Shown: piece after piece, positions 1,576 through 57,383 of the stretch
Position numbering within the stretch: the stretch's first letter is position 1
How the letters are laid out: each line of letters opens with the position of its first letter
From: a phage
DNA length: 64,000 nucleotides
NCBI GenBank assembly: GCA_020279385.1
Contig: GCA_020279385.1_4762.1
Reading direction: 5' to 3' (one strand)
Translations under genes and position numbers: made by a program
Notes under the pieces: generated by a model
Told to the model about the DNA's origin: nothing
The model's input: the letters and a program-made list of their open reading frames with translations, nothing else
Database searches by the model: none

Positions 1576-2262
1576 TTAGTCGGTGTAGCTGGAGTCAAGG
1601 TCACACGCGATCATATAAGATACGGTTTCACTTGCCAGCCATACAGCCTTACGGCGAGTGAAGCTCAGTTTGTAATCTCCGAAGTCCGTAGCAACCAGTT
1701 TCATGTTATCTTTACGAATAAAGAAATGGAAGTCGGCGGTTCCGGTATATTCGCCCATATCAAGACAAAACATCTCATTAGGATTATTTTTGTCAATCTC
1801 TTCCCAACCTTTGATCATCAGACGACCATCAATCGGTAGAAATTCAAGGCGATCCACTTTAAGCTGATTGCTCATTTTCATAAGCTGTTTCAGATCGTCG
1901 TTGCTCAGTTCGTAATCTACATCGCTTGCCGGTGGAGTAACTCGGCCTTTCGGTGATACGATAGCAGCAGCACTAGCACCAGGATAATTAATTTTCAGAC
2001 GATCATTAGACACACGAATGTTACCAGTGCGGTTATCAACCGTAATATCTGCTTCATCGCCTACCAGATTCAGAATACCCAAGAAAGAGTTAAGATCATA
2101 GATCCCAATTTCGTGTTCCAGTTCTTGATTCAGAGTCGCTTCACCATATACAACGTTTGTCATGTTTTTGGTGATCAGGACGTTTCCTTTTTTCAGGATG
2201 ATACCTGGGTTAATAGCGGAAAAGTTTTTCAGGGTAGCAATGGTTTCTTTAGTCAGTTTCAT
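1576..2262 (-). CDS. 45: Sliding clamp gp45
   Basis: MKLTKETIATLKNFSAINPGI... matches T4 gp45 (MKLSKDTTALLKNF...); ATG at 2262, ORF-track start is a TTG one codon upstream. Confidence 0.95.
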   Translation of the reverse strand: MKLTKETIATLKNFSAINPGIILKKGNVLITKNMTNVVYGEATLNQELEHEIGIYDLNSFLGILNLVGDEADITVDNRTGNIRVSNDRLKINYPGASAAAIVSPKGRVTPPASDVDYELSNDDLKQLMKMSNQLKVDRLEFLPIDGRLMIKGWEEIDKNNPNEMFCLDMGEYTGTADFHFFIRKDNMKLVATDFGDYKLSFTRRKAVWLASETVSYMIACDLDSSYTD

Positions 2263-2292
2263 CAAATCACCTTTATCATGTTAATCAATTAA

Positions 2293-7783: not shown

Positions 7784-8017
7784 TTATTTTACCTCTGGGA
7801 TATAATCAATTATTAAAGAAAATTCATCTTCTGATACATTATAGCTATGTGAGATTGTACCCGTCAAGACCTCAAGATCCGGTGATTTGATATTGCACGG
7901 ATCGATAATCACCGGAACGCCGCAATCTCTCAAAAATAATTTGGCGAAATACGGCACGAGGTCAGTTTCAAACTCTGCTTCTTCCAGCAAACGGGAAATG
8001 TTAATTTTCAATCTCAT
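7784..8017 (-). CDS. Hypothetical protein
   Basis: 77-aa ORF between genes 55 and 47. Confidence 0.45.
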
Positions 8018-8534
8018 AAAATTGGTCCAGGCTAGGCAATTCCTCAGTCAATACATCTTCAACCTTTGGCGCTTTCGGTTTATTGACCGATTCCTCGTAG
8101 TTGTTGATTTTATCGTAAATGTCCTGTATGAATGCCTCATCAGCAATCTGGCACATATCAGCGTCGCGTTCGTCATATACATGATGCACAAAATATTTGT
8201 ATTTTGCGGCTGTCGCTGTTCTCTCTTTTTTAATGCGCTGTACAAAAGCATTAAAGCACGCTTGCGTGATGTAAGCATGAGGATTTTTATACTTTGTCTC
8301 GTCAAAATTAATCAAACCCTTGACCGCCGCTTCGATTCCGTCGTCGATCATTTCTTCGCGCCATGTTTGACTATAACCAGAAAAGTTAAAACGACGTGAT
8401 AGATTTTTAGAGATTTGCATAATTGCTAGGCCGATTTGATCGCTCATTGGAACTTGCCGACCTTCTGCTGCAATTTGTTGTTTCCAACGGCAAATTTCTT
8501 CGTAAAGCTCTTTATTGTTTACATAATCAGACAC
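8001..8534 (-). CDS. 55: Late-transcription sigma factor gp55
   Basis: YVNNKEL...[49 protein letters not shown] nearly identical to T4 gp55 blocks. Confidence 0.95.
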
Positions 8535-19329: not shown

Positions 19330-19803
19330 CTATCTTAATCTTTGTATAAATTGTTTCTTATACTTCTTCGTGATCTCTTCTCTTGTATCCGCGTCACAGT
19401 AATCGAAACCTTCTGCGTCCATAATAGCAACCATCTCCGAGCGTGTCAAGCGTGAAAATCGTTTTACTTTATCAACAGCATATTGAGGATGTAAATGATT
19501 GTTGGTGTAGTCTCCTTTGATGTAATTAACATAGTTTGTAGCCCAAACAACGAAATCAGCACCTAAAGCACCAACACCAAACCGTTTAAAGTCTCCGGTC
19601 AACGATCCTTCTAGGCGGTTGCAACACGAATGAAGCAATCCCCTTACGCGGCCTTGCCCTTTCCCATCTAGATCATGATCATGGTCAAGATGGTTTTTGC
19701 TCATATCCTCAAAAAGTGGCAATTGACAAAGGGGGCAAATGCCCCCCTGTTTTTCGAATAGTTCTTGTTTATACTCTTTAGCACTCTTAGCAGTCAGTAA
19801 CAT
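19330..19803 (-). CDS. 49: Endonuclease VII (Holliday junction resolvase) gp49
   Basis: 157 aa from ATG 19803; CPLC..HLDHDHDL..GKGQGRVRGLLHSCCN matches T4 endo VII. Confidence 0.9.
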   Translation of the reverse strand: MLLTAKSAKEYKQELFEKQGGICPLCQLPLFEDMSKNHLDHDHDLDGKGQGRVRGLLHSCCNRLEGSLTGDFKRFGVGALGADFVVWATNYVNYIKGDYTNNHLHPQYAVDKVKRFSRLTRSEMVAIMDAEGFDYCDADTREEITKKYKKQFIQRLR

Positions 19804-19827
19804 AAATTCACCCTCCAAAGAAGGTAT

Positions 19828-20110: not shown

Positions 20111-20866
20111 TTATACCTCATTCAGTTCTATATCAAGTTCATTTTCAATAATATAGGCATTAACTGCCCGTGCCGCATCATCTTCTGTGTCAAATCTTCC
20201 TATATACACACCGCGAACTTTAGCACCGTAATTACCTTGTTTTGGTACTTTGTAAACGTATCTATGACGGGAACTTGCTGCTTTTTGGAGCTTCTTGCCA
20301 TATTCAGACTTTGCATATTCTATATCATCAATCTCGTTTATACAAGACCTATCACCAAAATGTTTCAACGCTGCAAGATTATATGCATACGCCGCACCGA
20401 TCTCGGAGGGAAAATATCCTAAATGTATAGACTTCCCATCCAACATTATTGCACCAGTCCAATAACCTTTATTCTTATTAAACGACACACCTTTATACTT
20501 CGAATATGTTTTGCATTTGGTCTTGCTCATATTCATATTATTTTGTTTGCTTGTCGTCTCTCTAAGGTTTTCAATGCGGCTATTATAACGATCTCGGTCT
20601 TTATGATCTATATACTTAGGACAATGACCATGAAACATATGATAGATAACACGGTGCATACGTTCGTATCGCTCGCCAGTCCATACAATACGATACCCAT
20701 CGGGGGTATCACTTCCAGCTAATCCGTTTATAACACCTTTTCGGTGCGGGTGAATCTTCCACCTAAGAAAACCATCATCATAATAAAACCGTGAATGATA
20801 TAAATCATACAAACGTTTATCTTCTGGAGTCTTGTGTATAACATCATATTTTAACATTGGTGACAT
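20111..20866 (-). CDS. HNH homing endonuclease with tandem AP2-like DNA-binding domains
   Basis: IDHKDRDRYNSRIENLRETT HNH motif; two YKGVSF/YGAKVRGVYIGRF AP2-like modules. Confidence 0.8.
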   Translation of the reverse strand: MSPMLKYDVIHKTPEDKRLYDLYHSRFYYDDGFLRWKIHPHRKGVINGLAGSDTPDGYRIVWTGERYERMHRVIYHMFHGHCPKYIDHKDRDRYNSRIENLRETTSKQNNMNMSKTKCKTYSKYKGVSFNKNKGYWTGAIMLDGKSIHLGYFPSEIGAAYAYNLAALKHFGDRSCINEIDDIEYAKSEYGKKLQKAASSRHRYVYKVPKQGNYGAKVRGVYIGRFDTEDDAARAVNAYIIENELDIELNEV

Positions 20867-21659
20867 AAACTTCCTTAGTATCGGATTTTTTACCCCCGCT
20901 ACGATCTAAACAATATGTTTTATCCAGTTCAACAACAGAAACATCATTACGTTCGATAAAATCAAGCAAATGGTTGTTAACTTTCCCTTTGTGGTGAGTA
21001 ACATTGCTTAATCCAAACTTAGTACCGCTAGACATTAATGATTCTATCCACATGTAGAATTTAATCTCTTCTTCTTCACTCCAGAACTTATTATATTCTG
21101 CCGACGTGATCCAATATGGCGGATCAAGGAAAACGAAATCATCCGGCAAGATCTCGATCTCGTCATAGCGACCAGACGTAAAACTGATTCGACCGTCTTT
21201 GTTTTCTTCCTTAAAATTCAGGACACGCTCTACCGCGTTTTCGTTAAAAGTCCGGCGACCAAAATTAGCATTAAATTCTCCCTTCCGGTTATGGCGGTTA
21301 ATGTTGCTAAAACTGTGCTGAATCAGAACAAACAGAGATAGCGGATCTGGATTCTCGTTATACTTCTTGCGGAATGCCATGTAAGCATCTTTATCATCAC
21401 GAGACAAATCATTTTCGGCAATAATCCGCTTGATCGTAGAAACCGGATCAGGACACTCGTCAATCGCTTTGTACGCGTCAATTAAGCGGTGATCATAGTC
21501 ATTCGCCAGAACATCCCCTTCGACGTACAGAGACACGCTCAAGCCGCCACAAAAGGCATCAACAAAGCGGTTATAGTGCTTAGGGAAATACTTACTAACA
21601 CCTGGCAATAACTTTTCCTTATTGCCAGTATAGGGAATTAAACCTAATGCTTTCTTCAT
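20844..21659 (-). CDS. dam: DNA adenine methyltransferase Dam
   Basis: YTGNK, FVDAFCGGLSVSL, DPPY, FGLSNV blocks colinear with T4 Dam. Confidence 0.9.
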   Translation of the reverse strand: MKKALGLIPYTGNKEKLLPGVSKYFPKHYNRFVDAFCGGLSVSLYVEGDVLANDYDHRLIDAYKAIDECPDPVSTIKRIIAENDLSRDDKDAYMAFRKKYNENPDPLSLFVLIQHSFSNINRHNRKGEFNANFGRRTFNENAVERVLNFKEENKDGRISFTSGRYDEIEILPDDFVFLDPPYWITSAEYNKFWSEEEEIKFYMWIESLMSSGTKFGLSNVTHHKGKVNNHLLDFIERNDVSVVELDKTYCLDRSGGKKSDTKEVYVTNVKI

Positions 21660-26226: not shown

Positions 26227-26254
26227 ATTATACGGGGATTTCTCCCCGTGTCAA
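26227..26254 (-). promoter_or_regulatory. Early promoter TTGACA-[CGGGGAGAAATCCCCG]-TATAAT
   Basis: Same palindrome as at 6355-6371; drives the TGA-interrupted gene. Confidence 0.5.
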
Positions 26255-53800: not shown

Positions 53801-53939
53801 ATTTGCAATGAGTCCACTGTTTGACCAGTCGGCGGTAACATTCTCTATGTTCCGTGAACTTGTGGATAAACGGTTGAAGGATAATATAGGGAATCCACGC
53901 GATCCGAAGAATCCGACACAGAGGAAAATTAATGGCTAA
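50850..53939 (+). CDS. 7: Baseplate wedge initiator gp7
   Basis: 1029 aa (T4 gp7 is 1032 aa), conserved position. Confidence 0.85.
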   Translation: MIKAPSVTSLTIEKLSANQAYITWDDVGENFFYFVELAETRTRDGEIIPVDELSWINLGYTADQNWFEDKKNLFPEYYYKFRVAVAAEGFEQSKWIETEEFQTFKTNAYNFSMMREFNLANEFIKEKFTYDNREYVKFNTDLIQASLMKEDFVFSPEYANMTNISNYIVVDGNFHEIQDHIEKVCTDINRTMLAEMNGVLYLFERFQPIVKVSNDKGQSWKAYKAFNDRVGNPVSRTCVYQSKTTTYVLGYDRIFYGRQASDTRWSADDVRFSDDTITFAKVGDENDLGFDVEVFGVFSRLTGDTTKYAEAMACSDDYLWVGAKDVIRRIRLKNTPVDTVQGSPTFGEKIFDPDVIRVTGNDKAVIQKMDVIDGKLLVFVTGEVKQRYQDPTKPENVVPSDDAGVYLIGSDGLSFQRVFGNTPQEREYIQHGFSNMSTNGDEVFISHYNHHFESILPDPETAAKYELGEAVKYSQEPTYLTDKKIHQTTFRASYDDLRIWELGPQAYYNEADYTWMRRNGVRVWITNDNRPLVVYPEVIYTQEVDTSGILDQNRVNREVYDKGTVTCYLNNVKFEGFKQYASGVMFHKNTGEIIGFYQFNYRVRDQVGVYWKPTNVAFVAELQNQVREVPWVPVHYDREQDPDLRPLLNKMTPDSFLLENENFRKFSEYYLQFLSDGSGTYYNKLKNLIKNKYPREQDAYEYLWSEMNKRNIYADKNKRDAVVRFFESRKSDFYSTKGVEASYKFLFKLLYNEDVEIEVESQAGLEYDIVVSSTNIDEDIVGRTIYTPTGRANVTYLEREYEGGRLRWRVTIHNLIGRFEEGQVIKSEKTAFEGMILVGVRGKELLSSSIDYINRSRSQYTMKIKSALPVSRYANDVMRFVHPVGFGFIGVTLLTMFINSGLSMKHTETIIQSLKNYKFDSGLPSVYPDRVADLDVDGNIKKDPLTGKALYLTSPLIGEEFPVPPEYDQENSELFHGLKASERRFAMSPLFDQSAVTFSMFRELVDKRLKDNIGNPRDPKNPTQRKING

Positions 53940-54927
53940 TGAAAATAGTGTGATCTATCGCTCAATCATTACTAGTAAATTCAGAACGGAAAAACTTCTG
54001 AATTTCTATAATTCTGTAGGCGATGGGGCAAATCAAATTACAATTTATGGAACGTTTGGACGTTCGGAGCCGTGGTCAGAAAACGAAAAAGAGGTGGGCT
54101 TTGCCCCACCTTATCCGACCGATTCAACGGCTGGTGTTGTTGACATGTGGACCCATATGATGGGGGCGGTTAAGATTAACAAATCACTTCTTGATGCGGT
54201 TATCCCTCGTAAAGATTGGGGTGATACCGGACAGGATAACCCGCGCACATTCTTTATCAATGACATTGTTGTTGTCAACTCAGCACCATATAACCGAACT
54301 GATGTTGGTAGCGGCTGGATGGTGTATCGCGTAACCGATGTTCCTGATCGCGGTTACTGCTCTATTTCAAGCATTGACGCTAAAGTAGAGTGTTTGAAGC
54401 TGGGCGGAAAGTGGACCCCCACTCATGAATCAATTGCGCCACCTGTAGGAAAGGGCGATTCTATTGATATGGGTGATGGGTATCGTTGGGAATATCTGTA
54501 CACAATTCCACCTGATGCGGCGATCAACCGTTGCACCAATGAACATATTGTTGTACCGTTCCCCGATGAACTGCGACAAGATCCGGCGCGTTGGGGCTAT
54601 GACAATGTGATCACATGGTATAATGACTATAATCTTCTTTATCGGCTGAAAGTAGTAACTTTGCGTTTTCAGGCTTATATGGACTCTGCGCAATTCCCAA
54701 CTACCGCGTTAGTGGGTAATACTGGTTTCCGTCAGTTAAGCATTATCCTTAACCCATTGGAAAAGAAAGCACGCCCTAGCGATCCAGACGTTAAAGCGGT
54801 TAAAGATCAGTACCGTCCGCAAGACTTAGAGCCACACTCAGGAGAAATGATCTACATGGAAAACCGACAACCTATCGTTCGGTCATTAGATCAAACAGAA
54901 CTTGTTTCTGTATTGTTTGAGTTCTAA
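53932..54927 (+). CDS. 8: Baseplate wedge protein gp8
   Basis: SVIYRSIITSKFRTEKLLNFYNS...FGRSEPWSENEKEVGFAPPYPTDS nearly identical to T4 gp8. Confidence 0.95.
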   Translation: MANENSVIYRSIITSKFRTEKLLNFYNSVGDGANQITIYGTFGRSEPWSENEKEVGFAPPYPTDSTAGVVDMWTHMMGAVKINKSLLDAVIPRKDWGDTGQDNPRTFFINDIVVVNSAPYNRTDVGSGWMVYRVTDVPDRGYCSISSIDAKVECLKLGGKWTPTHESIAPPVGKGDSIDMGDGYRWEYLYTIPPDAAINRCTNEHIVVPFPDELRQDPARWGYDNVITWYNDYNLLYRLKVVTLRFQAYMDSAQFPTTALVGNTGFRQLSIILNPLEKKARPSDPDVKAVKDQYRPQDLEPHSGEMIYMENRQPIVRSLDQTELVSVLFEF

Positions 54928-54941
54928 GTGTATGATTTAAA

Positions 54942-54975
54942 AGCCAATTCGAGAGAGTTGGCTTTTTCCATTTTT
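54942..54975 (+). terminator. Intrinsic terminator after gene 8
   Basis: GCCAATTC-GAGA-GAGTTGGC hairpin followed by TTTTTCCATTTTT. Confidence 0.6.
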
Positions 54976-54979
54976 GGTG

Positions 54980-55007
54980 TTGACAATCTTATTTGGTAAG
55001 GTATAAT
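54980..55007 (+). promoter_or_regulatory. Sigma70 consensus promoter TTGACA-N16-TATAAT driving the gene 8-9 cassette
   Basis: Perfect -35 and -10 hexamers on plus strand inside the late structural module. Confidence 0.6.
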
Positions 55008-55036
55008 ACACACATCTAAACAACGGAGGATAAATT

Positions 55037-55294
55037 ATGGCACGTCGTAAATTTACAGATAATTGTGAAGCAATTCAGGTATCCCCTTGCGGTTGGGATG
55101 TGATCGCGAACGGTGAAAAGATCGGAGAGATCATCGATCATACTCATTCATCATTAGCCGATTACACCGATGAACTATGGGAGGGTATCAACTTCATGAA
55201 TGACACTAAACGATTCAAGACTATCGACGAAGCTATCTATTTTGTGTATAATCCAACTTTCGGTATGTGGGGAACTAGAAAATGGCACGCGTAA
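55037..55294 (+). CDS. Hypothetical protein (cassette gene 1)
   Basis: 85 aa; SD GGAGGA; downstream of TTGACA-N16-TATAAT promoter. Confidence 0.5.
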   Translation: MARRKFTDNCEAIQVSPCGWDVIANGEKIGEIIDHTHSSLADYTDELWEGINFMNDTKRFKTIDEAIYFVYNPTFGMWGTRKWHA

Positions 55295-55614
55295 ATATTA
55301 AATTGCATTACACAATGAATAAAGCTAAGTTCCCAATGCAAAAGCATTACTATGGTCTACGTGCACAAGATCCTAAACTCTATGGTACTCATTGGTTTTG
55401 TAAACATGATAACCAATGGCACACATACGAAGAAATGCACGAGATGATGAAACAGGGTATTGAATTTAGTTATTCTAATTATGACCATCGTATAACTTGC
55501 ATTCGAAAATTGAAACGATGGATTCGTAAGAATCCGCAATTTAAAAACTTTGTGTTCTTTATGTCTCATGTTTATTTGGGACATAGCGTTACCGTCACAG
55601 CAAAGGTTAAATAA
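55282..55614 (+). CDS. Hypothetical protein (cassette gene 2)
   Basis: 110 aa; overlaps gene 1 stop. Confidence 0.5.
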   Translation: MARVNIKLHYTMNKAKFPMQKHYYGLRAQDPKLYGTHWFCKHDNQWHTYEEMHEMMKQGIEFSYSNYDHRITCIRKLKRWIRKNPQFKNFVFFMSHVYLGHSVTVTAKVK

Positions 55615-56453
55615 TGGCACGACTTTCTAAACAAGAACAAAAATTACACGATCGGGTGATGGAGTTGATTAATTCAGATCGCCCATTGACATATGAAGAA
55701 AAAGAATTTTGCTATAGTAACTATCATGGCGATGGTCTAGGCGGTTCAGGTGCATTCTTTACCCCAGAAGGGCTTGCATGGGATTTTACCATCGATGCAC
55801 ATTGCACAGGAAAAGTATTAGATCTTTGTGCTGGGATCGGTCGATTATCTTTTTGTATGTTACATCGTTGTAAGCCAGAAAAGATCGTATGCGTCGAACT
55901 CAATCCAGAATTTGCGCGGATCGGTAAACGACTATTACCGGAAGCAGAATGGATCACCAGCGATATATTCGAATTTGAGTCAAACGAAAAATTCGATGTT
56001 GTGATCAGCAATCCACCTTTCGGGAAAATCAATACTACCGACACAAAGGATGTATTTGAGTACACTGGCGGCGAATTTGAATTTAAGGTTATGACATTAG
56101 GCCAGAAGTTTGCCGATGTAGGTTATTTTATTGTTCCTGTTGGTTCCGCTGGTTTTGCCTATTCCGGTAGACCTTATTATGACGGGAGCATGAAGTCTAA
56201 TAAATATCTAAAATGGAGCAGACAAACTGGTTTGGCGACTTACGCCGGATGTGGGATCGATACATCAATCTATCGCGATGAATGGCATAGTACCAACGTT
56301 TTAACAGAAGTGGTTGAGGTTCGGTATTACGAGAAAGAAGCCGTAGAAGCGCCTAAATCACGTCCTAACGAACAAATAGAAGAAAGTAAGGAGATTACCT
56401 TACCGAAACAGGAAAGCGAGTCTGGGACGCTCTCAGATTTGTTTGACATTTAA
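55614..56453 (+). CDS. SAM-dependent methyltransferase, NPPF type (cassette gene 3)
   Basis: 279 aa; FFTP, VLDLCAGIGRLS (SAM-binding) and VVISNPPFG blocks in that order (gamma-class arrangement). Confidence 0.7.
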   Translation: MARLSKQEQKLHDRVMELINSDRPLTYEEKEFCYSNYHGDGLGGSGAFFTPEGLAWDFTIDAHCTGKVLDLCAGIGRLSFCMLHRCKPEKIVCVELNPEFARIGKRLLPEAEWITSDIFEFESNEKFDVVISNPPFGKINTTDTKDVFEYTGGEFEFKVMTLGQKFADVGYFIVPVGSAGFAYSGRPYYDGSMKSNKYLKWSRQTGLATYAGCGIDTSIYRDEWHSTNVLTEVVEVRYYEKEAVEAPKSRPNEQIEESKEITLPKQESESGTLSDLFDI

Positions 56454-56457
56454 TTAT

Positions 56458-56484
56458 AAGCCGTCCTTGTGGGCGGCTTTTTTG
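56458..56484 (+). terminator. Intrinsic terminator after cassette methyltransferase
   Basis: GCCGTCC-TTGT-GGGCGGC hairpin plus TTTTTT. Confidence 0.7.
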
Positions 56485-56503
56485 TATGTATTTTATAAAT
56501 AAT

Positions 56504-56511
56504 ACATCATA
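56504..56511 (+). promoter_or_regulatory. T4-type late promoter TATAAATA (gene 9)
   Basis: TATAAATA 18 nt upstream of gene 9 ATG, after cassette terminator. Confidence 0.55.
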
Positions 56512-56528
56512 ACATGAGGAATTAAACA

Positions 56529-57383
56529 ATGGCACAAGTTCCAAAGAAAAGAATAGACACAGGTACTGTCGGCAATCCATCGACTGGCGATATCTTATAT
56601 GATGGCGGTAATAAAATTAACGATAACTTTGATTCAATATATGACGCATTTGCTGATCAACGTCTAAAAGAGATTGATCACGGTGCTGGTCGAATGGTTA
56701 TTCATGCAACTGGATACTATCAGAAACACCCACGACAAAGCTATGCAGGATCTGCGGTAGAGATTGGTAGCCTACATGATATTGACACAACTCAAGGCGC
56801 ATTAATAGCAATTCTTCCTAAAGCTAAAGTTGGTGAGGGTGTTGTGTTCATAAATAGTAACGGTAGCTTTTCGGCAACAACACCACTAAACATTAGAACT
56901 CAAGCCGGAGATTCTATTAGCGGGTATTCAGGTGACGCGGTAATAACTCAACCTTTCTCAAAAGTCACCGTCTGGTGTACTGCCGTCGAAGGTAGTAGAG
57001 TTACTTGGCGGCTGGGCATCGAAAGTATGTTTACCGACACAACTACACCACTAGATAGGACCGTTAATGTAACTGGAGTTGCAACCAACGTTGCTATTGC
57101 AGCAAAAACAGAATATGTATCAATTAAACTATTAACAACCGCTAGCAATACGACGGGTTCAAAAATGCGCTCAAGCGAAACTCTATTGATGATTGATGCC
57201 AGAGCCGGAAAAGTTTACGCGACAGAATATGCGGTTTTACAGAAAACAGAAGACGAATTATACACGGTTCGTTATTTCATTGGTTCCGGCGATAAAGTAT
57301 ATGCAGAGTATAAGGCTACTGGCGAAAATATTCGTTTAGCAGTTAAAGCCACAGACACTATTAAAATCGGGGTTGCTACATGA
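56529..57383 (+). CDS. 9: Baseplate long-tail-fibre attachment protein gp9
   Basis: KKRIDTGTVGNPSTGDILYDGGNKIN matches T4 gp9 N-terminus. Confidence 0.9.
   Translation: MAQVPKKRIDTGTVGNPSTGDILYDGGNKINDNFDSIYDAFADQRLKEIDHGAGRMVIHATGYYQKHPRQSYAGSAVEIGSLHDIDTTQGALIAILPKAKVGEGVVFINSNGSFSATTPLNIRTQAGDSISGYSGDAVITQPFSKVTVWCTAVEGSRVTWRLGIESMFTDTTTPLDRTVNVTGVATNVAIAAKTEYVSIKLLTTASNTTGSKMRSSETLLMIDARAGKVYATEYAVLQKTEDELYTVRYFIGSGDKVYAEYKATGENIRLAVKATDTIKIGVAT

Follow-up and report, generated by a model that had tools for sequence, protein, structure and literature searches.

In phage T4, the hydrophobic-acidic C-termini of the DNA polymerase gp43, the late sigma factor gp55 and gp33 are the epitopes that bind the gp45 sliding clamp; across the T4 family the linkers that carry these epitopes vary and are probably unstructured, and an epitope moved from one protein to another keeps its function (Geiduschek and Kassavetis, PMC2988020). 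In bacteria, QLSLF is a beta-clamp-binding motif found in Hda, Pol II, Pol IV and other proteins (PMC5397184). Tethering of a DNA methyltransferase to a clamp has been described for DNMT1, a maintenance enzyme that binds PCNA through a PIP box (PMC9690074), and two sliding-clamp reviews name no methyltransferase among the gp45 ligands (PMC2988020, PMC9690074). A different kind of known element, the promoter-early stem-loop (PeSL) of phages RB49 and phi1, joins a stem-loop terminator to a near-perfect sigma-70 promoter; AT-rich sequence precedes the promoter, and a Shine-Dalgarno (SD) sequence and start codon come after it (PMC2839356, PMC4122927). PeSLs flank non-essential ORFans, insulate them transcriptionally and mediate modular shuffling; those in conserved core blocks accompany plastic adaptive genes (PMC2839356, PMC4122927). 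Here we analyze a 64,000-nucleotide stretch of phage DNA (GenBank assembly GCA_020279385.1, contig GCA_020279385.1_4762.1; hereafter the window), in which a 1.6 kb insert with three overlapping open reading frames (ORFs) separates the late baseplate genes 8 and 9. The third ORF encodes a 279-aa methyltransferase (MTase) that, judging from its sequence, is rather probably an early-expressed DNA adenine-N6 methyltransferase tethered to the gp45 sliding clamp.

The most informative feature of this cassette is the end of the MTase (55614–56453, plus strand; phrog_3820), where a disordered linker leads to a clamp-binding-like C-terminus that a first-pass annotation of this DNA had missed. In an AlphaFold2 model built with 28 homologues (mean predicted local distance difference test score, pLDDT, of 83), residues 1–246 are mostly of high confidence, and the pLDDT of residues 247–279 (33 residues) falls below 50. 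The latter comprise an acidic linker (aa 247–271; 56352–56426, plus strand) and the octapeptide TLSDLFDI (56427–56450, plus strand), the candidate clamp-binding motif. The region matches 59 phage records at 90–99% nucleotide identity. They belong to Krischvirus, a genus of phages of Escherichia and Shigella that includes RB49, phi1 and JSE, and the window is itself a Krischvirus sequence. The MTase ends with ...ESGTLSDLFDI and the JSE gp43 DNA polymerase with ...KVASLTDLFDI, the last five residues being identical; T4 gp43 ends with ASLDFLFG. The last 149 aa of JSE gp43 recur with at least 99% identity in 57 phage records, and all of those listed are Krischvirus. When a six-frame translation of the rebuilt JSE genome (954 ORFs of at least 40 aa) was scanned, the MTase tail was the closest to that of gp43, with 6 of 8 residues matching in register, and the next real protein, gp33 (ending TNTLDI), reached 3 of 8. 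Only four C-termini fit the pattern [ST]L.{1,2}[LFM][FY] within their last 12 residues, those of gp43, gp55, the MTase and a spurious ORF of 41 aa, so that TLSDLFDI, so close to SLTDLFDI of the cognate polymerase, is unique in the JSE proteome besides known clamp ligands. The same C-terminal scan of the window gave a result like that for JSE, marking gene 55 for the late sigma factor (8001–8534, minus strand; the tail is identical to that of the JSE gene annotated 55). Among Krischvirus isolates GTLSDLFDI is constant, while the linker in front of it drifts (KQESES, EQETAS or EDKSPS). The phage encodes its own clamp, the proposed docking partner (gene 45, 1576–2265, minus strand; Pfam gp45-slide_C 3e-14, DNA_PPF 6e-6).

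We also asked whether gene 43 had donated its 3' end by gene conversion. A recent copy is unsupported, since the two ends share 14 identical nucleotides only and their Asp and Leu codons differ. Three other JSE proteins have termini of a similar kind: a DprA-like protein (101422–102009) ends with ...GGSDLSWLDI, DNA ligase (127866–129362) ends with ...VKEVFDV, and the N-terminus of RNase H (146221–147168), ...ATLNDFFDD (MTYNPFTKTTATLNDFFDD), resembles a clamp motif. These may be further gp45 ligands.

Relatives of the MTase carry clamp-like tails of other kinds. We collected 80 loci from IMG/VR and 80 from bacterial genomes and read the C-termini of their family members. Pseudomonas homologues end with QLSLFDAA, those of Burkholderia and Caballeronia with SQLDLFAMAA, a Desulfovibrio relative with VQLSLFDWAA, Rhizobiales and relatives with Q[ALP][SDN]LFG[DE]AA or with QLSLF at the very end, and Streptomyces proteins with ...TLF, ...VLF or ...FLF. 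Unnamed IMG/VR viral contigs of 40–90 kb likewise carry ends of the QLSLFDAA, QLDLFAMAA and QA[SD]LFGDAA types. The wider beta-clamp consensus is QL[SD]LF. Bacterial-type tails follow Ala/Pro/Glu-rich linkers of up to ~90 residues; linkers cannot be aligned among family members, yet the motif persists. The strict pattern Q[LAMPFVH][SDNTEG][LIM]F was found in the last 12 residues of 52 of 149 unique family members and in none of 2387 control ORFs of at least 100 aa from the same loci (Fisher test, 6e-69). The relaxed pattern [LAMPFV][SDNTEG][LIM]F was present in 63 of 113 long-tailed members, most of the others ending with xLF or xLL. In T4-like phages, the MTase versions are extended by an acidic or proline-rich stretch whose end is conserved; those of RB16 and KP27 have an LxxF core in common with the gp55 and gp33 tails of the same phages. 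Tail type thus tracks clamp type across the homologues.

The N-terminal part of the protein is, by model and alignments, a single-domain S-adenosylmethionine (SAM)-dependent NPPF amino-methyltransferase with motifs X, I and IV in gamma order. Motif X (FFTP, aa 48–51; 55755–55766), the SAM-binding motif I (VLDLCAGIGRLS, aa 68–79; 55815–55850) and the catalytic motif IV (NPPF, aa 133–136; 56010–56021), all on the plus strand, are invariant or nearly so in 28 homologues. In two homologue alignments (A1 and A2), FFTP and the LCAGIG within motif I are invariant; in NPPF, the N, the first P and the F are invariant and the second P nearly so in A1, and the N and both P are invariant and the F nearly so in A2. 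The first-pass annotation of this DNA, made from the letters alone, had listed these three blocks in gamma order, had staked its reading on a SAM-binding fold, and had remarked on the lack of a large target-recognition domain and on a Dam gene elsewhere in the phage. The blocks are present as described, and the AlphaFold2 model shows the Rossmann fold. The protein is one 246-residue domain with a disordered tail; Dam is encoded at 20844–21659 on the minus strand (Pfam MethyltransfD12, 2e-30). Compared with gamma-class N6-adenine enzymes, the MTase thus has the SAM-binding Rossmann fold, motifs X, I and IV and the (N/D)PP(F/Y) signature, and it lacks both a target-recognition domain and a specificity subunit, no partner gene being conserved beside it.

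The best family-profile matches of the protein are DNA methyltransferases. In Pfam, both MTS (37.8 bits) and Eco57I (27.4 bits) score above their gathering scores, and MethyltransfD12 gives no match. PHROG 3820, "DNA methyltransferase", matches with 3e-116, and RefSeq gives the family the same label. In PADLOC the MADS DNA methyltransferase mad2 ranks first (1e-16) and a Type II MTase next (1e-9); the matches cover the stretch from FFTP to NPPF. A search of PDB sequences with the family profile returned generic matches only (E ~1e-3).

The gene context of the family likewise points to DNA as the probable substrate. In Pseudotevenvirus and Slopekvirus phages (RB16, KP27) the MTase gene has helicase gene 41 on one side and primase gene 61 on the other. 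At one of two bacterial-side loci examined, in a Pseudomonas genome, a Sipho_Gp157 gene is nearby; the other, on an IMG/VR contig that clusters with Rhizobiales genome loci, has genes for a helicase, an MT-A70 methyltransferase and a primase-helicase of Prim-Pol/AAA_25 type. The version in Dickeya phage JA11 (198163–199332) is a fusion of the family domain with a C-terminal N6_N4 DNA methyltransferase fragment (profile positions 170–216 only), and a complete N6_N4 methylase lies two genes beyond the fusion.

Taken with the tail, these features suggest how the enzyme could work. We infer that the tail would dock on gp45 clamps placed by the clamp loader on replicating phage DNA; if so, the enzyme should stay on the new duplex, held on and moving along freshly made DNA, where it would methylate adenine N6. 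The tether could supply the DNA affinity that the missing recognition domain otherwise gives, and would bias methylation towards DNA replicated by the phage machinery. The likely benefit would be protection from restriction or self-marking, the cytosines of the phage being unmodified.

Several observations weigh against this proposal. That SLTDLFDI binds gp45 in Krischvirus itself would follow by analogy with T4 and RB69. The RB16 MTase ends with QNLFTFTIE and that of KP27 with SDLFTFTIE. The clamp ligands of the same phages end with TLEMFL (gp55), TLDDFM (gp33) and SLNTLFGDDW (polymerase) in RB16, and with TLEDFL, TLDGFM and SLNDLFGDW in KP27, so that the two MTase tails resemble them only in a short LxxF or LF core, more weakly than in Krischvirus. 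The closest relatives of the catalytic domain, in enterobacterial prophages (53–61% identity), are tail-less, as are the versions from Aeromonas phage 65 and phiM12; hence the tether would be an add-on, dispensable for the enzyme. Family members are related to one another, and the Fisher test above therefore overstates their independence. Literature searches turned up no biochemical or methylome evidence for any family member. Finally, high-performance liquid chromatography-mass spectrometry (HPLC-MS) detected no modified nucleoside in the DNA of Krischvirus TB34 (PMC13390438), and DraI, HpaII and NheI cut RB49 DNA (PMC4041780), which makes dense or non-specific methylation unlikely. The HPLC-MS study reported cytosine derivatives only and nowhere mentions N6-methyladenine (PMC13390438), so sparse adenine methylation may have escaped attention.

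The same study describes Krischvirus SAP, in which cytosines are fully glucosyl-methyl-modified; TB34, 99.96% identical to it, has no such modification, no pathway genes were found, and the authors give no explanation for the contrast (PMC13390438). Both phages carry the cassette.

The tail-less relatives bear on two further points. Flavobacterial versions also lack a tail, and with those of enterobacterial prophages, Aeromonas phage 65 and phiM12 they led us to reject the tail as a universal feature of the family. In a neighbour-joining tree of the catalytic domain (no bootstrap), the Krischvirus clade has the tail-less copies of enterobacterial prophages as its sister group and stands apart from the RB16/KP27 clade; from this topology, the two gp45-type tails may have arisen separately. 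The enterobacterial copies are chromosomal; two were inspected, and they lie at the outer edge of a prophage (Enterobacter) and of a degraded island (Citrobacter).

Because the closest relatives lack a tail, the protein might be an ordinary orphan phage DNA methyltransferase with a short target motif of its own, its likeness to the polymerase tail being functionless. Orphan methyltransferases are common in phages, and the PHROGs and RefSeq labels would suit one. What a functionless tail leaves unexplained is that it has no counterpart in the JSE proteome apart from the known clamp ligands and stays invariant as the linker drifts, and that the corresponding clamp motif of bacteria recurs, far more often than expected by chance, in the homologues from bacterial genomes and provirus-like contigs. 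We regard this explanation as unlikely, while granting it a real chance.

An RNA or protein methyltransferase that modifies host translation would be another possibility; its models would be METTL5-like ribosomal RNA (rRNA) N6-methyladenosine (m6A), RsmC-like rRNA m2G or PrmC-like glutamine N5 enzymes. In the fold comparison with the AlphaFold2 model, the uncharacterised lmo1582 scored 19.0, METTL5 (18S rRNA m6A) 18.6 and PH1948 18.2, followed by M.BseCI (16.3), the Type I enzyme HsdM (16.1), MmeI (16.0) and M.TaqI (15.7); the modeled fold alone cannot separate DNA from rRNA enzymes. The NCBIfam model of PrmC, TIGR03534, reaches 37.1 bits against a cut-off of 199.1, and over residues 64–137 only, which leaves the label "release factor glutamine methyltransferase" of several GenBank records unfounded. 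The first-pass annotation had named, as the finding that would overturn it, a housekeeping RNA or protein methyltransferase common at this position in related phages. Part of this is so: the gene is common between genes 8 and 9 in related phages, but its product stays below the thresholds of the protein and RNA methyltransferase families scored. Over the stretch from motif X to motif IV the DNA methyltransferase profiles score better, the gene is found in replication modules and beside or fused with DNA methyltransferases, and a clamp-binding tail makes little sense on an enzyme acting on RNA or a translation factor. Hence we consider a substrate other than DNA improbable.

The first two ORFs of the cassette share a promoter with the MTase, but appear to have a history of their own. 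ORF1 (55037–55294, plus strand; 85 aa, acidic; phrog_16603) and ORF2 (55282–55614, plus strand; 110 aa, basic; phrog_12630) overlap by 13 nucleotides, and the ATG of the MTase shares one nucleotide with the ORF2 stop; these overlapping start and stop codons suggest translational coupling of all three. All three begin with Met-Ala-Arg (MARRKF, MARVNI and MARLSK, at 55037, 55282 and 55614); most MTase homologues across phyla begin with MAKL(T/S)K or MARI. As the first-pass annotation had it, the two small proteins are without recognizable motifs: neither has a match in Pfam, NCBIfam or PADLOC, and their PHROGs are of unknown function. The AlphaFold2 model of ORF2 is unreliable (pLDDT 62). Outside Krischvirus, three further phage records have ORF1, at 69–70% identity, and the listed ones are rV5-like (FV3, HMD-6); ORF1 forms one cluster among 5.8 billion proteins. 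ORF2 is present in the listed rV5-like phages at 58–60% identity and matches three Campylobacter-labelled records; a search of 1.84 billion representatives gave four hits, none of them a remote relative. Both are conserved and are therefore real genes. Within Krischvirus, ORF2 occurs as two alleles, one ~100% identical (JSE, phi1 and others) and one ~72% identical (RB49, GEC-3S, E26, MIZ5), and ORF1 and the MTase beside either allele remain more than 90% identical. The pattern looks like allelic replacement inside the cassette, and would be an indirect sign of the recombination or mini-circle formation ascribed to PeSLs.

The annotation had further proposed a modification or anti-restriction system of three proteins, with ORF1 and ORF2 as accessory or specificity subunits. 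The ORFs are co-transcribed with overlapping codons, and for an MTase without a recognition domain a separate specificity subunit is conceivable. However, rV5-like phage FV3 has ORF1 and ORF2 as an overlapping pair with no MTase, the other listed rV5-like phages have ORF2 alone, and the same MTase stands beside either ORF2 allele. Conversely, ~290 MTase relatives are found in cultured phages, among them Aeromonas phages, phiM12 and Dickeya jumbo phages, and none lies beside ORF1 or ORF2. No neighboring gene family is common to ~150 MTase loci, which leaves the idea of two accessory proteins unsupported. We therefore rejected ORF1 and ORF2 as partners of the MTase, and consider a three-protein system very improbable. 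From these comparisons the cassette has a mosaic make-up, ORF1 and ORF2 being a separate two-gene module independent of the MTase.

That the tail is itself the active part, so that the protein would compete for the clamp with gp43, gp55 or gp33 (with host polymerases in the case of prophages) and regulate replication or late transcription, any methylation being unimportant, is scarcely credible: the tail is nearly that of the polymerase and gp45 does couple replication to late transcription (PMC2988020), but tail-less members persist, and the FFTP, LCAGIG and NPPF motifs stay invariant or almost invariant from phylum to phylum, a sign that enzyme activity is under selection.

The layout of the cassette is consistent with early expression of the enzyme. 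On the plus strand, gene 8 for a baseplate wedge subunit (53932–54927; Pfam Phage-Gp8 1.4e-143; phrog_977) is followed by a hairpin with a U-run (54939–54966; 12-bp stem, -17.3 kcal/mol, z of -5.0 versus shuffles), read as the gene 8 terminator and as the stem-loop half of a PeSL-type element, a sigma-70-type promoter TTGACA-N16-TATAAT (54980–55007; 12 of 12 hexamer positions match) and the SD sequence GGAGG of ORF1 (55025–55029), whose ATG is at 55037. The cassette ends with a terminator hairpin (56458–56479; 9-bp stem with six G-C pairs, -15.9 kcal/mol, z of -4.7). Beyond it lie the late-promoter box TATAAATA (56494–56501), 27 nucleotides before the start codon of gp9, and gene 9 for the baseplate wedge tail fiber connector (56529–57383; Pfam T4_gp9_10_N 5.8e-41). 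Hairpins, promoter, ORFs and late box were all found where the first-pass annotation had put them, and the hairpins, promoter and ORF order bear out its picture of a self-contained early-promoter operon within a late baseplate cluster. Perfect TTGACA-N15-18-TATAAT sites number five in the window versus 0.08 expected, with the remaining four located in the early region on the minus strand; by this measure the cassette promoter is of the same class as the early promoters of the phage itself. Host RNA polymerase should thus transcribe the cassette early, and the enzyme should be made while clamps are being loaded. The TATAAATA octamer is not enriched in the whole window (4 found versus 5.7 expected). 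We therefore discarded statistical support for the box on its own, and its position alone backs its role as a late promoter.

The 5' boundary carries, in its sequence, all the features of a PeSL, though the stem is not polyG/polyC: the stem-loop, of mixed A/T and G/C pairs, is next to the promoter and has a U-run after it, TTTTTCCATTTTTGGTG provides the AT-rich stretch before the -35 box, and the SD and start codon follow. The published work on PeSLs would explain how a module with this layout can be insulated transcriptionally within the late cluster. A PeSL with ORFans is an architecture already described, and is ordinary for Krischvirus. Elsewhere in the window (26227–26254, minus strand), a perfect sigma-70 promoter has a GC hairpin as its spacer, TTGACA CGGGGAGAAATCCCCG TATAAT; it falls in the subclass of PeSLs whose stem-loop separates the -35 box from the -10 box.

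The cassette is present in nearly all matching records: 58 of the 59 cover the gene 8 to gene 9 region over its full 2.6 kb, with 94–98% nucleotide identity within the cassette. Its GC content (0.35–0.42) is the same as that of the flanks and the genome. The cassette is hence fixed in the genus rather than recently acquired, and the horizontally acquired moron of the first-pass annotation does not hold in a recent or sporadic sense. Morons, as described by Hendrix et al., have a promoter and terminator of their own, lie between conserved genes and are atypical in composition or sporadic in distribution. The cassette has its own promoter and terminators; its GC content is genome-like, and it is fixed in the genus. 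The annotation was right that genes 8 and 9 are adjacent in T4 (63-nucleotide gap), and so they are in Lw1 (10 nucleotides) and Roth27 (9 nucleotides); the T4 gap itself holds a hairpin and then TATAAATA. In Acinetobacter phage Ac42, a distant relative of T4, a homing endonuclease (94214–94969) lies at the same junction. Thus, the transcription-unit boundary between genes 8 and 9 has served as an insertion site more than once. The window has a homing endonuclease of its own at another place: a 251-aa protein with HNH_3 and AP2 domains (20111–20866, minus strand) is encoded between gene 49 for endonuclease VII (19330–19818) and dam (20844–21659), overlapping the dam end. JSE carries nrdC where the window has this endonuclease.

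The cassette type (PeSL) and the generic label of the MTase are already known. In the literature searched we found no report of a clamp-binding tail, or of a switch between beta-clamp and gp45 binding, on a phage or bacterial methyltransferase. Publications on methylation in Krischvirus and Slopekvirus contain nothing on this MTase gene; the KP15/KP27 papers sought further methyltransferases and listed Dam and Dcm only, overlooking it. If the tether is real, it explains how DNA is found by a methyltransferase that lacks a recognition domain, extends the "tool-belts" of gp45 and the beta clamp by a class of enzyme, and provides a simple route to methylating only self-replicated phage DNA, which bears on restriction and self/host discrimination in RB49-like phages, which are without hydroxymethylcytosine. 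More tentatively, and with somewhat less than even confidence, we suggest that the homologues could form a family, widespread and so far unrecognised, of DNA methyltransferases from phages and prophages that travel on the sliding clamp, their tails retuned to the clamp at hand (QLSLF-type for the beta clamp, a copy of the polymerase tail for gp45), as a counterpart, in viruses and bacteria, of the DNMT1-PCNA pair. In Krischvirus, such an enzyme would confine methylation to phage-replicated DNA and so mark it apart from that of the host.

The comparison with described systems can be drawn at each level of the cassette. Like a PeSL, its 5' boundary places a stem-loop terminator, a near-perfect sigma-70 promoter, an SD and a start codon upstream of ORFans. 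It differs in its mixed stem, where published ones are often polyG/polyC; in its spacer of 16 nucleotides, where the published one is 17; in having a single PeSL, with a plain terminator at the 3' end; and in that the module is fixed in the genus and not variable.

For the catalytic domain, the close known systems are the gamma-class N6-adenine DNA methyltransferases (M.TaqI, M.BseCI, type I HsdM and Eco57I/MmeI). T4 Dam, with an orthologue in the window genome, is likewise a phage orphan adenine methyltransferase, but Pfam reveals no relatedness between the two and Dam has no tail; the JSE orthologue ends with ...VYVTNVD, with nothing clamp-like. T4 Dam belongs to the alpha class, has DPPY and places motif IV before motif I in sequence order. 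A third methyltransferase-like gene of JSE (120467–121138; 223 aa) has FPPC and ENPV motifs reminiscent of C5-cytosine methyltransferases; its product has no Pfam match and no clamp-like tail.

The tail finds its nearest parallels among the clamp ligands. As in gp43, gp55 and gp33 of the T4 family, a hydrophobic-acidic peptide stands at the extreme C-terminus on a variable, flexible linker; unlike in those ligands, the candidate tail here is on a methyltransferase. Bacterial beta-clamp ligands are matched by the homologues from Pseudomonas, Burkholderiales, Rhizobiales and provirus-like contigs, which end with QLSLF, QLDLF or QADLF on disordered linkers, whereas the window protein has the spacing LSDLF, closer to the T4-type motif. 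DNMT1 would be alike in principle, a short clamp-binding motif bringing a DNA methyltransferase to newly replicated DNA, as we propose here. The two enzymes are otherwise unrelated: DNMT1 is a large, multidomain C5-cytosine enzyme that acts on hemimethylated CpG, and the window protein consists of a 246-residue NPPF amino-methyltransferase domain and a tail.

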